Positions 33,001-36,000 of a stretch of 64,000 nt of DNA are shown here, in pieces. Position 1 is the first letter of the stretch. The number at the start of each line of letters is the position of its first letter. Position numbers: made by a program. Origin of the DNA: Arcobacteraceae bacterium (GTDB taxonomy: Bacteria > Campylobacterota > Campylobacteria > Campylobacterales > Arcobacteraceae); NCBI GenBank assembly GCA_965224485.1, contig CBDCZH010000013.1:32001-96000 (forward strand). Reading direction: 5' to 3'.

Positions 33001-36000
33001 AAAGAATGCAGTCATATCAGCTACACGTGCAGCTTGTTGCATATTATGTGTTACTGTAATTATTGTATATTTTTCTTTTAGCTCTAACATAAGGGCTTCT
33101 ATTTTTTCTGTACTTATTGGGTCAAGTGCTGATGTTGGCTCATCCATCAAAATAATTTCTGGTCTAATAGCCATAGTTCTAGCAATACAAAGTCTTTGCT
33201 GCTGTCCACCTGAGAGAGAAGTCCCTGGTTCTTTTAATTTATCTTTTACTTCATTCCAAAGTCCAGCATCTCTAAGTGATTTTTCAACTAAAGCATCACA
33301 CTCTTTACCTTTTTTAACTAAAAGATGTTTTATAGGAGCATAAGCAACATTTTCATAAATTGATTTTGCAAAAGGATTAGGTTGTTGAAATACCATTCCT
33401 ACTCTTTTTCTAACACTTACTTCATCAACATCTTTATCATAAATATTTTTATTATCTATAATTACTTCACCTTCTATTTTAACAGAGCTTATTAAATCAT
33501 TCATTCTATTTAAACATCTTAAAAAAGTTGATTTTCCACAACCAGATGGGCCTATTAAAGCTGTTATTTTATTTTCATATATAGGAATAGAAATATTATG
33601 TAATGCATGGTTATCTCCGTACCATAGGTTTAACTCTTTTGTATTTATTTTTACTTCTTGTTTATTGTTTGTTTCTTGCGTGTTTTGTGTTTCTTGTATT
33701 TCTTTGCTCATGTTTCCTCTTTTCTTCAGGGTTATCTTTTTTTATTTCTTATTTCTTTTGTTCATTTTTCATTGTTCTTTTGTCATTCTGCCTTCGTTGG
33801 TGCTCGTTCCTCGCACATCAACTACGGTTCCGACAGTACTCTTTCCTTCGTTGGTGCTCGTTCCTCGCACATCAACTTTGGTTCCGACAGTACTCTTTCC
33901 TTCGTTGGTGCTCGTTCCTCGCACATCAACTTTGGTTCCGACAGTACGCTTTCCTTCGTTGGTGCTCGTTCCTCGCACATCAACTACGGTTCCAAAGCTA
34001 TAAAAGTGAAGCAGTTCACTTTTATTACGCTTTTCACCACTTAACCTCATACTTTTTTCTCAAATAAATTGCTACTGCATTTAGGGATATAAGTATGCTT
34101 AATAAAACCATAATACCAGCGGCAGTTTTTTCTATATACATTCGCTCAGGCATTCCAGACCAAGTAAAAAGTTGTGCTGGCATAACTGTTGCTGCTTCAA
34201 AGATAGATGTTGGAGTATCTGGAATAAATGCAATCATTCCTATAATAATTAAAGGAGCAGTTTCTCCCATAGCTTGTGCTAAACCAATAATAGAACCTGT
34301 TAAAATACCTGGAAAAGCTATTGGCAAAACATGATCTCTGGTTACTTCGATTTTAGTAAGACCTAAACCATAAGCTGCTTGTCTAATAGAATCAGGAACA
34401 GAACGTAAGGCTGCTCGTGAGCTTACTATTATAATAGGTAAGGTCATTAAAGCTAGGGTTAATCCTCCAACTAAAGGTGAGCTTCTTGGCATTCCAAAAA
34501 GGGATATAAAAATAGCAAGTCCTAAAAGACCAAATAAAATAGAAGGAATTGCTGCAAGATTATTAATATTAATTTCAATTATTTGAGTTAATCTATTATC
34601 TTCTGCAAACTCTTCTAAATAAATAGCTGTCATTACTCCAATTGGAAAAGCAACTATCATGGTTACTAGCAGGGTTAAAATTGAACCAATTACAGCTGAT
34701 TTTATTCCTGCATATTCTGGTATTTTAGAATCACCGTTTGTAAAGAATATCTTATTAAACTGTAAATTGACATTTCCTTCTTCTTTCATTTTTTTAAGTA
34801 AGGTAAGTTCTTTTTCTTTTAGTTTATAATAATGACCTTTTAAATATTGATCAACTTGATCATCTGCTAAAACCCAAACTAATTTTGTAGTATTTAAAAG
34901 TTGTGGATTTTGTTTGATTTCTCTTGGAATATTTCTAAGCCAAGCTCGTGATACTATTTTTCTATATTTCTTTTGTATTGCTACTCTTGAGTTCTCTATG
35001 CTCTTTTTGCTGTAATTTACTTCAATTTGAACATAAGCTTGTTGATAAGCTGGCAAACCTTTTGTAATAATATCAGTTAAGAAAAAAAGTAAAAATAGTA
35101 TTGAAAATACTAAAGATCCAAGGGTAAATCTTTTAAATCTTCTTGCACTAGCATGTCTTGAATTTAAACTTGCATCATAAAATGGATTTGTATCTCTTTT
35201 ATTCTTTTTAATATACTTATTATCTCTATTTATCATAATGTATTCACTTTATATTTTTCTTTGAATTTTCTAATCATAATTAATGATATGATATTTAAAA
35301 CAAGAGTAACTGCAAATAGAACTAAACCTAGGGCAAAAGCACTTAGTGTTGCTGGTGAATTAAATGCCTGATCACCTACAAGTGCATCAACAACTCTAAC
35401 GGTTACTGTTGTCATGTCTTCTAAGGGATTAATAGATAAATTAGGTCGAAGACCTGCTGCCATAACAACAATCATAGTCTCACCTAAAGCTTTAGAAAGT
35501 CCTAAAAGTGAGGCTGAAATTATTCCAGGAAGCGCAGAAGGAAGTACTATGTTTTTAATAGTTTCACCTTGAGTTAAACCTAAACCTAAAGCTGCTTTTC
35601 TCTGTGAGTCTGGAACTGCTCTTATTACATCATCACTTAAAGACGAAATAACAGGAATAATCATAATCCCCATAACCACACCAGAAGCTAAAGCAGAGTT
35701 AAAAGTGGCCTCTAAACCAACGAAATTGGCTGCTTTTACTATTAAAGGTGCAACTGTAATTGCTGCAAAGAAACCATATACAACAGTAGGAATTCCAGCT
35801 AATACTTCTAACATTGGTTTTAAATAATCTCTTGTTCTTGAAGAGGCGTACTCACTCATGTAAATAGCAGAACCAAGTCCAACTGGAATAGCTACTGACA
35901 TTGCTATTAAAGTAATCATAAATGTTCCTGCAAAAATAGGAATAGCACCAAACTTACTATCTTCTACTCCTGGTGACCATTCAGTTCCAGAAATAAAGTA

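Follow-up and report, generated by a model that had tools for sequence, protein, structure and literature searches.

The spacer between pstA and pstB in an Arcobacteraceae genome (G000) carries a member of an order-wide family of structured RNA-type modules, and we propose, at a probability of about 0.55, that this family represents a junction cassette, sense-transcribed and gained and lost at gene ends, which reaches from a stop codon to a Shine-Dalgarno (SD) sequence and whose fold is kept by selection. The locus lies in a 64,000-nt stretch of contig CBDCZH010000013.1 (C13), here called the window, to which positions refer unless a contig is named. The survey's finding had presented the element as a cis-acting RNA of Arcobacteraceae, anchored on UGA stop codons and acting at the ends of a few conserved genes. 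Comparison across genomes retains its structure and strand and enlarges its spread; it also reveals that the modules come and go at orthologous junctions, that their TGA travels with them and that their orientation follows transcription.

At the pst locus, a full module is followed by three copies without hairpin 1 (Table 1). The basic description of this stretch is borne out, comprising a UGA and then a 9-11-bp hairpin behind pstA (34023-34002, AAAAGUGAA-CUGC-UUCACUUUU), a 54-nt repeat (TRF, 33791-33993, equivalent to C13:65791-65993; 3.8 copies, 96% matches) and a high GC content, which is 0.51-0.52 at 33800-33999 (100-nt windows) against 0.22-0.38 in the flanks and 0.270 for the genome. Units 2-4 of the array are whole modules minus hairpin 1, in whose place stands AAAGCGUA-CUGUC, and model R1 also matches the array at 33786-33846 and 33840-33900. 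An A-rich spacer runs from a five-codon mini-ORF to the SD and AUG of pstB and, because some 80 nt separate the array from pstB, the last GAAGG is not the SD of this gene in G000. Folded as a whole on the minus strand, the spacer beats its shuffles by only a moderate margin (z -2.68; opposite strand, z -4.25), which counts against the cassette.

Table 1. Parts of the pstA-pstB region of G000, with positions in the window
Feature	Position	Strand	Detail	Basis
pstA	35236..34034	minus	stop TGA 34036-34034	
UGA, pstA stop and first three bases of the module	34034..34036	minus		alignment columns 7-9
P1 5' arm, AAAGC	34029..34033	minus	partner of 33998-33994	fold and alignment
Hairpin 1	34002..34023	minus	9-bp A/U-flanked stem, 11 bp with extension; CUGC loop	
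P1 3' arm, GCUUU	33994..33998	minus		fold and alignment
GGAACC linker	33988..33993	minus	CC able to pair with GG of the closing GAAGG	
Hairpin 2, copy 1	33958..33984	minus	outer GUUG/CAAC, 2-nt AU bulge, inner GUGC/GCAC, loop GAGGAACGA	
GAAGG, SD-like 3' end of the module	33953..33957	minus	repeats at 33899-33903, 33845-33849, 33791-33795	
Tandem array, period 54	33791..33993	minus	unit starts 33993, 33939, 33885, 33831	TRF
93-aa ORF g01258, judged non-gene	33769..34050	minus		ORF scan, Pfam, G165 comparison
Five-codon mini-ORF (AUG..UGA)	33769..33786	minus	4 nt past the last GAAGG	direct reading
pstB	33711..32902	minus	downstream gene; AUG at 33711-33709	

Modules of this family measure about 85-95 nt and contain two interrupted hairpins, in the order (U/G)GA, a helix P1 enclosing hairpin 1, GGAACC, a short closing helix enclosing hairpin 2, and GRAGG. 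The covariation claimed previously was reproduced with an independent alignment, in which 94.5% of 1506 cells pair compared with 37-46% when partners are slid; both sides change in 19 of 26 pairs and none of 500 shuffles reaches the score. Such both-side changes are found in four of the five pairs of P1 (97.9% of cells pair), 7/11 of hairpin 1 and 7/8 of hairpin 2, and RNAalifold independently recovers P1, hairpin 1 and the outer part of hairpin 2. The strand is likewise that of the host gene, G-U exceeding A-C by 31:11 (A1), 38:10 (A2) and 39:7 (A3), or about 4:1. Between near-identical copies in G074 a P1 pair is compensated (AAGUC/GACUU versus AAGCC/GGCUU), and the pseB/pseC copies of four genomes keep the fold with GAAUC/GAUUC versus GAACC/GGUUC; both sets of changes lend support to selection on the module in place. 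Columns 7-9 read T, G and A in 55, 55 and 56 of the 58 aligned modules. Unpaired positions are also invariant, namely GGAAC (58, 56, 58, 58 and 58 of 58 modules, base by base), the GU after P1, the UA before the P1 3' arm and a loop G (third base of the hairpin 1 loop, 54/58). Such invariance across the order would sooner be expected of a functional RNA that has a conserved partner than of a passive repeat, a point that counts against the cassette. The number of hairpin 2 units varies, with four in G000, two each in G165 and G158 and one in G053.

The wide distribution of the element in the Arcobacteraceae was recovered with a model of our own, which matches 86 of 131 genomes (all at least 95% complete) and 15 of 18 genera, with 1-30 matches each. 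The family is not restricted to this group, as had been supposed, since it also occurs in 9 of 12 other Campylobacterales families (21/151 genomes of the class sample); of two large families, one has no match in 53 genomes and the other a single, partial match in 60. Nor is the pst locus its only site in G000, where further copies lie after groEL (C7:25074-25163, 70.5 bits), after fusA (C15:171634-171704) and at C16:284404-284487, and the five matches formerly counted at pstA become three with our model at E<=0.003. The fusA copy is a reduced form consisting of P1 and hairpin 1 alone, which also follows pstA in G164. One contig of IMG/VR holds a module copy, and blastn gave no match in the plasmid and phage collections. 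Searches of Rfam 15 yielded nothing overlapping the element (window positions 33000-35000, E<=10) and no match to eight module loci of five genomes (E<=1). The element is thus undescribed as far as Rfam and the literature searched extend, the comparison with the motifs of Stav et al. 2019 being confined to the text and tables of that paper, which include unnamed motifs from GC-rich intergenic regions in Arcobacter sp. L, among them HRC-4 and HRC-5.

The proposed anchoring on UGA holds only in so far as this triplet is a conserved part of the module. A TGA opens 72 of 91 distinct copies, counts that come from loci fetched with the motif itself, orthologous copies included, and are not independent, but it ends a long ORF in only 19 of the 91 (21 if two copies cut by locus ends are counted); about 51 of the 72 TGA-bearing copies end no ORF of at least 80 codons, and some copies, at groEL, carry TAA at this position. 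At the pstA junction, all eight filled sites end in TGA, the 44 empty ones end in TAA or TAG, and a gene followed by a partial module ends in TAA; at the serS junction the filled sites again end in TGA (4/4) and the 26 empty ones in TAA or TAG. None of these 70 empty junctions ends in TGA, a codon that accounts for 11.8% of the stops in G000. When the pstA flanks of G069 (empty) and G070 (filled) are aligned, the insert falls after the T of the native TAA. Most of the anchoring therefore comes down to a UGA that the module itself carries to the end of the gene. At its other end, GRAGG is followed at a distance of approximately 4-16 nt by the start of an ORF (80 codons or longer, or 50 or longer where it runs off the locus) in about 20 of the 91 copies, and both module ends are in use at cas1/cas2, nuoD/nuoE, pseB/pseC, serS/dnaJ-like and dmsC/oxidoreductase.

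The notion of a few conserved host genes had to be abandoned, as modules occupy more than 25 unrelated junctions, including cas1/cas2, nuoD/nuoE, mraY/mur ligase, MCP/cheW, greA/asd and groEL, together with rRNA spacers and tRNA trailers, and the host genes have no common function. Both 16S-23S and 23S-5S spacers contain the module in sense orientation, with some copies placed behind tRNA-Ala or 23S rRNA within rRNA operons. In the complete genome G133, each of the 23 loci can be read in sense with an adjacent gene or rRNA; 13 of them are co-oriented with replication and 10 opposed (origin taken at dnaA). Antisense copies are found at six tRNA-Asn loci (between tRNA-Asn genes), at one locus in G132/G139 (L028) and in the G074 insertion, and their existence counts against the cassette.

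At the pstA and serS junctions, the module is present in some species and absent from close relatives, and the presence of the TGA follows that of the module. G074 contains four or five almost identical copies with unrelated flanks, one of them absent from the corresponding site in four congeners. Other modules are retained at groEL in four genomes of two families and at pseB/pseC in four genomes. We infer mobility solely from presence and absence because we found neither a transposase nor target duplications or terminal inverted repeats for the module: the G069/G070 pstA junction has no target-site duplication, and the G074 insertion, a composite with outer inverted 12-mers belonging to another palindrome family, has flanks too diverged to place its exact borders. 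On the sequences compared, repeated precise loss, rather than gain and loss, would retain a small residual chance. The survey's own alternative, a small mobile repeat with a built-in terminator, fits these observations better than a regulator of few genes, although its terminator is dropped because the module sits in sense inside rRNA operons.

In mechanistic terms, the first bases of the module would supply the upstream stop, the U replacing or reusing the T of a native TAA or TAG and the GA coming from the module, and its last bases would supply an SD sequence for the next gene. It would therefore form a self-contained stop-to-SD cassette, able to fit into a gap of a few bases between tightly coupled cistrons without breaking either neighbour and, likewise, to sit just behind a tRNA, a 23S rRNA or a last gene. 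Once placed, the RNA fold would be kept by selection since it maintains a workable junction, in which the 5' and 3' ends are held together, hairpin 1 comes 12 nt after the stop, and the SD is half-paired. The fold probably works by blocking 3'-exonucleases or by mildly modulating termination upstream and initiation downstream, in which case the pstA:pstB ratio would shift, rather than the UGA being decoded. The module may have a regulatory effect on termination, read-on transcription or stability; a dedicated regulator of termination at UGA is not what the comparisons show.

Such a regulator can be entertained tentatively. In this case, the module would be a dedicated cis-regulatory RNA whose invariant junction bases and hairpin 1 loop are read by a trans partner (a protein, the ribosome or an RNase), coupling UGA termination to processing, to stability or to a renewed start from the SD downstream, and copies would be kept for host benefit. 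Unpaired bases that stay invariant while the stems covary are consistent with this proposal, as are the primary sequence of hairpin 1, which is conserved across families, a strong sense bias that tracks transcription and not replication, and the retention of modules at groEL and pseB/pseC. Hairpin 1 begins 12 nt past the stop and the mRNA entrance of a terminating ribosome lies near this distance, and the CC of GGAACC has two alternative partners, the GG upstream of the UGA and the GG of the SD. However, a shared regulatory role is difficult to reconcile with host genes of no common function, with patchy presence at one junction among close species, with copies at sites that have no terminating ribosome, namely rRNA spacers and tRNA trailers, or with the majority of TGA-bearing copies ending no ORF of the length given above. 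The candidate partners examined also fail: CsrA (PF02599) is above cut-off in none of the 131 Arcobacteraceae genomes and does not track the motif across families in the class sample, and RNase E/G was discarded as a partner, its family being absent from all 151 genomes of that sample.

An intrinsic terminator or attenuator of the kind seen in these AT-rich genomes, formed by the A-tract, short stem and U-tract of hairpin 1 with the remainder as baggage, is improbable. Hairpin 1 does resemble, also in its place just behind the stop, the native terminators directly after serS in the 26 empty junctions, and in G159 the array stands where the 5' arm of the native serS terminator would be; many hosts (groEL, fusA, serS, ychF and argJ) are genes that we take to be the last of their operons, and the reduced form after pstA and fusA has only P1 besides the part concerned. 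Nevertheless, efficient termination would be harmful at the sense copies in 16S-23S and 23S-5S spacers and in the obligatory operons at nuoD/nuoE, mraY/mur ligase and pstA/pstB. A consensus terminator scan does not call hairpin 1, as its stem has only two G-C pairs, and a terminator needs none of what the module adds, namely a covarying P1 clamp, hairpin 2 and an invariant GGAAC.

It is very unlikely that the module is a small RNA with its own transcription whose tandem arrays titrate a GGA-binding protein like the sponges CsrB and RsmZ. Three GGA motifs per 54-nt unit in G000, one of them in the hairpin 2 loop, and a conserved 22-nt leader with two direct heptamers ahead of the G133 arrays would suit this role, but many hairpin 2 loops have no GGA and most copies sit with a stop codon at one end and an SD at the other. 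The CsrA version was rejected on the absence of this protein from the Arcobacteraceae and its failure to track the motif. Hardly credible at all are the ideas that the ORF encodes a genuine 93-aa repeat protein or that the UGA is recoded (through a SECIS or by read-through) since, for all that the ORF is open, its period a multiple of three and the UGA followed by a hairpin, the corresponding frame meets a TAA after eight codons in the sister G165, whose repeat unit is 55 nt, the ORF has no Pfam family, an in-frame UAA lies two codons past the UGA in G000 and module copies occur in non-coding RNA operons. The earlier verdict of a structured, strand-specific nucleic-acid module in place of a gene is thus upheld by the closed frame, the Pfam result and the covarying stems, and its exclusion of SECIS by the UAA and the copies in rRNA spacers and behind tRNAs. 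The 93-aa ORF is judged a by-product of the repeat and not a gene; in the ORF scan, the array is open in all three plus-strand frames and in two on the minus strand. Translational bypass or read-through was set aside, since pstA and pstB are each complete as genes of their own and the reading frames beyond the UGA lack conservation, and a riboswitch was rejected because the downstream genes are unrelated.

Among known elements, the best reading by analogy would place the family closest in lifestyle to REP, BOX and MIRU repeats. REP/BIME elements (REPINs) of enterobacteria and pseudomonads are similarly short, GC-richer and structured, lie in transcribed intergenic DNA at gene 3' ends or between cistrons, and are gained and lost from strain to strain. 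A REP acts as a barrier to 3'-exonucleases on the malE-malF mRNA and, when located within about 15 nt of a stop codon, reportedly stalls the ribosome; both types of effect may extend to the present modules. These differ from REPs in their two dissimilar interrupted hairpins, invariant junction bases, own stop codon and SD, and sequence conserved across the order, and also in a low copy number (1-30 matches per genome), direct arrays and a strong sense bias where REP/REPIN elements have high copy number and inverted pairs. No Y1/RAYT transposase (PF01797) was found in G133, with its 30 module matches, or in G000, and the domain is present in G136, G135 and G074; as orientation is also not tied to replication, RAYT/IS200 mobilisation was rejected.

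The BOX elements of Streptococcus pneumoniae (boxA-boxB(n)-boxC) are likewise modular, intergenic and predicted to fold, with one sub-module tandemly repeated in variable number, and we know of no report of their fusion with stop codons or SDs. MIRUs, which are said to be tandem intercistronic operon units in gene orientation with ends overlapping the flanking stop and start codons, share this junction-filling lifestyle; however, they work via small in-frame ORFs, whereas the present family conserves RNA-type structure and not an ORF, the TAA-bearing unit of G165 being an example. The module ends (UGA-RAA..., ...GRAGG) are not inverted repeats and the G069/G070 site has no duplication, in contrast to MITEs, and the mixed orientation in G133 relative to replication and the dissimilarity of hairpins 1 and 2 set the family apart from IS200/IS605-derived PATEs, whose activity on the lagging-strand template ties their orientation to replication and whose two subterminal hairpins are alike. 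Likenesses to the head of group II intron domain 5 (GAGCCGUA), rrn boxA, an RNase P minihelix and a K-turn at UGA/GGAACC were judged too weak to claim.

A more far-reaching scenario, offered here as speculation, joins the cassette to a partner. An ancient, order-wide mobile RNA-type cassette for operon junctions, equipped with its own UGA and SD, would keep stop and restart sites adjacent through its fold, and a conserved factor might read GGAAC and the hairpin-loop bases, such that the ribosome terminating at the UGA is passed on or the message undergoes cleavage and protection there; Campylobacter and Helicobacter would have lost this factor along with the element.

For the genome at hand, the analysis removes the false gene call g01258 and, more broadly, it accounts for one class of GC-rich islands between genes in the AT-rich genomes of Campylobacterales. 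The module causes a local excess of UGA stops that is not to be taken for recoding. A repeat carrying its own stop and ribosome-binding site can colonise the tightest spots of a genome, from the gaps between coupled cistrons to tRNA and rRNA trailers. If its fold has an effect, it would offer an off-the-shelf natural part with which to adjust the ratio between adjacent cistrons, and would mark an RNA-binding or RNA-processing activity common to environmental Campylobacterales.

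The minus-strand genes at the site are pstC, pstA, pstB and phoU. The pstA gene ends in UGG UGA (34036-34034), pstB starts at 33711, and the 322-nt spacer, read on the minus strand, opens with the bases UGA. It holds a folded module of about 90 nt (table) which, from the GGAACC linker onward, becomes a tandem repeat (period 54, 3.8 copies, 96% matches), its later units resembling whole modules with five bases in place of hairpin 1. The GC content of the array is 0.51-0.52 against 0.27 for the genome. The survey's finding that this stretch is a GC-rich structured tandem module, composed of UGA, a hairpin and a 54-nt repeat, is therefore borne out by sequence, tandem-repeat structure (TRF) and composition. 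It was also right to call the 93-aa gene g01258 false, as this ORF has no Pfam family, does not stay open in the sister genome G165, and exists solely because the repeat unit is free of stops in five of six frames. A mini-ORF of five codons (33769-33786, minus strand) starts 4 nt past the last GAAGG of the array and is separated by an A-rich spacer of ~60 nt from the Shine-Dalgarno (SD) sequence of pstB.

Parts of the first module in the pstA-pstB spacer, in window positions
Feature	Position	Strand	Remark
P1 5' arm	34033-34029	-	5 nt, after UGA
Unpaired stretch		-	five bases, between P1 5' arm and hairpin 1
Hairpin 1	34023-34002	-	9-bp, A/U-flanked, loop CUGC
P1 3' arm	33998-33994	-	5 nt, complementary, preceded by three bases
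GGAACC linker		-	directly 3' of P1 3' arm
Hairpin 2	33984-33958	-	2-nt bulge, closed by GAAGG

The module structure contains four helices: P1, hairpin 1, a 2-bp closing helix and the bulged hairpin 2. In an alignment of 58 distinct modules from fetched loci (A1), 94.5% of 1506 cells are paired, compared with 37-46% when partners are slid, and both partners change in 19 of the 26 pairs. The covariation score was reached by 0 of 500 shuffles. Given no structure, RNAalifold recovers P1, hairpin 1 and the outer portion of hairpin 2. Conservation in A1 is highest in unpaired bases; UGA is present in 55, 55 and 56 of the 58 modules, GGAAC in 58, 56, 58, 58 and 58, the GU following P1 in 54 and 55, the UA preceding the P1 3' arm in 57 and 58, and G as third loop base of hairpin 1 in 54. 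G-U outnumbers A-C by 31:11 in A1, and by 38:10 among copies from G133, G074, G083 and G000 (A2) and 39:7 among copies from other families (A3), the latter two having been fitted to a model that favours pairing generally, not G-U over A-C in particular; leaving out the single R-U pair at the foot of hairpin 1 still gives a sum of 62:26. It is thus the UGA-bearing strand that folds, and the covarying structure and its strand, previously assigned from U-G pairs, both stand.

The pstA 3' junction was read in 53 genomes and that of serS in 30, and filled and empty junctions are thus compared between species. All eight pstA junctions with a full module, one of them diverged, end in TGA (G000, G165, G053, G054, G065, G070, G158 and G107). 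These genomes represent six genera, often with empty congeners, and differ in their type of hairpin 2. The junction in G164 has only P1 and hairpin 1, with the stop TAA, and the 44 empty junctions use TAA or TAG, with AAGGA and an ATG 10-25 nt downstream of the stop or an overlap, TAATG. Similarly, 4 of the 30 serS junctions are filled, all with TGA, and the other 26 have TAA or TAG running directly into an ordinary terminator hairpin. Of all stops in G000, 11.8% are TGA. Aligning the flanks of the close pair G069/G070 places the insert after the T of the native TAA, with AAAUAAA kept to its right, such that the new stop consists of this T and the module's GA. At serS of G159, an array replaces the stretch from the stop T to the loop of the native terminator. 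From these comparisons, gain is a simpler reading of filled and empty junctions than precise loss.

Structural pattern matches in all fetched loci, which had been retrieved with the motif itself, gave 91 distinct copies, orthologues included. The triplet before P1 is TGA in 72, GGA in 11, TAA in 2 and another in 6, and this TGA ends an ORF of >300 codons in 19 copies (21 with two cut by locus ends). Among matches found by the model only, ArgJ, FabG-like and ThiS-like ORFs also end in TGA, YchF in TAG, and EF-G, a FabG-like and four GroEL ORFs in TAA. Approximately 20 of the 91 copies are followed, ~4-16 nt past GRAGG, by the start of an ORF (>=80 codons, or >=50 if it is cut by the locus end). 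Both ends, stop and SD-like motif, are used at several junctions; cas1|cas2 is exactly filled in G127 (L014/L051), where TGA ends cas1 and 4 nt separate GGAGG from the ATG of cas2. An element of a few conserved genes, such as pstA and serS, had been proposed, but the flanking pairs are mutually unrelated (pstA|pstB, MCP|cheW, serS|dnaJ-like, greA|asd, cas1|cas2, nuoD|nuoE, dmsC|molybdo-oxidoreductase, mraY-like|mur ligase, pseB|pseC, sdhB-like|CCG protein) and the hosts share no common function. Further copies precede fmt, rimP, aroC, rplJ, ruvC and dprA, and one lies upstream of a 139-codon ORF on a 34-kb IMG/VR contig filed as viral (L069). Sense copies also sit directly behind the tRNA-Ala CCA in 16S-23S spacers of G133 (four times), G083 and G188, and between 23S and 5S in G001 (two of six copies checked). 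The G188 spacer (L207:1452-1630) contains, behind an intact tRNA-Ala, a partial second copy from anticodon loop to CCA, with the module inserted between its loop and 3' half. Several arrays in one genus have a conserved leader of ~22 nt ahead of their first module, in which two direct TGTGACA heptamers stand 12 nt apart (L162, L164, L165 and L166 of G133; L020 of G135; L021 of G136); this leader could extend the element at its 5' end, bind a regulator or act as a promoter.

Neighbour orientation in the first 55 loci was ++ in 33 and -- in 8, one of the latter being sense in an rRNA operon. Antisense copies occur at six loci between tandem tRNA-Asn genes of Sulfurimonas-like genomes, at one locus in G132/G139, L028, and in one G074 insertion. 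On different contigs, G074 carries four or five modules that are nearly identical, have unrelated flanks and are nested in a larger palindrome; these show signs of what may be recent copying; at one site four congeners have both flanks adjacent, and a compensatory change in P1 separates two copies from two others. The palindrome belongs to a repeat family of its own, whose outer arms measure 12 nt (GTCAYTGCGAGG and its complement) and whose inner arms are long; together with the nested module it recurs in 4-5 near-identical copies (L177, L178, L180 and L181). In the complete genome G133, 30 matches fall at 23 loci, all 23 sense-compatible with a neighbouring gene or rRNA operon and 13 co-oriented with replication, the origin being placed by dnaA alone. 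No Y1 transposase was found in G133 or G000. The orientations in G133 and the lack of this transposase speak against a single-strand DNA mechanism of the IS200/REP type and in favour of a constraint acting on the transcript.

BLAST with the spacer found matches in 66 of 184 Arcobacteraceae genomes, mostly to the first 60 bases only. R1, a model built here, matches 86 of 131 Arcobacteraceae genomes (completeness 95% or more); the matched genomes span 15 of 18 genera and hold 1-30 matches apiece. In G000 it detects the pstA site (92.9 bits), two units lacking hairpin 1 and a second full module directly behind groEL (C7:25074-25163, 70.5 bits; L101:1501-1590, minus strand), with TAA at the UGA columns and the linker GCAAG rather than GGAAC. 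A module behind groEL is also found in G083, G049 and G192, the last from another family. Two reduced forms in G000 comprise P1 and hairpin 1 only (C15:171488-171704, L102; C16:284404-284487, L103), and one directly adjoins the TAA of fusA (EF-G). The family-wide spread reported earlier thus stands, but confinement to Arcobacteraceae does not: in an even class sample R1 matches 21 of 151 genomes (E<=1e-4) and 9 of 12 other families are positive. Two large families yield 0 of 53 and 1 of 60, the one being a partial match. Scanning every GTDB species for an exact pattern gave 38 loci, the named ones all from Campylobacterota, including Sulfurimonas, Sulfurovum, Sulfurospirillaceae and Helicobacteraceae MAGs. 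Outside Arcobacteraceae the head is GGA instead of UGA, the linker GCACGG and the closing helix longer. Rfam has no matching family, and no published description was found there or in full-text literature searches. Stav et al. 2019 (PMC6429828) list intergenic motifs from Arcobacter sp. L that are GC-rich and unnamed, and the module may overlap these.

The main alternative, though rather unlikely, is a genuine regulatory RNA recognised by a conserved partner, which the invariant junction bases and order-wide conservation would suit. Against it stand the random choice of hosts, the copies in rRNA and tRNA contexts, and the finding that neither CsrA nor RNase E/G holds up as a partner. CsrA (PF02599) was found in none of the 131 Arcobacteraceae genomes, nor in three other class-sample families (0/3, 0/2 and 0/6); the two large families without the module have it in 53 of 53 and 57 of 60 genomes. 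That hairpin 1 serves as a terminator fits hosts at operon ends and the replacement of the serS terminator, but not the copies within rRNA and other operons, and is distinctly improbable.

The module is a sense-strand fold with an intrinsic UGA and a terminal SD-like motif used by neighbours, and it is gained and lost. We favour, with a probability of roughly 0.55, its being a junction cassette, which would end the upstream frame at once, hold its two ends together by the fold and offer an SD to the downstream cistron. The fold would be kept since the junction would be disturbed by a GC-rich insert that did not fold. REP elements provide a precedent for shielding from exonucleases and for interference with termination or initiation; by analogy, the fold likely shields the upstream cistron from 3' exonucleases and likely interferes mildly with termination or initiation. 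By virtue of its stop, end-joining fold and SD, such a cassette could live between coupled cistrons.
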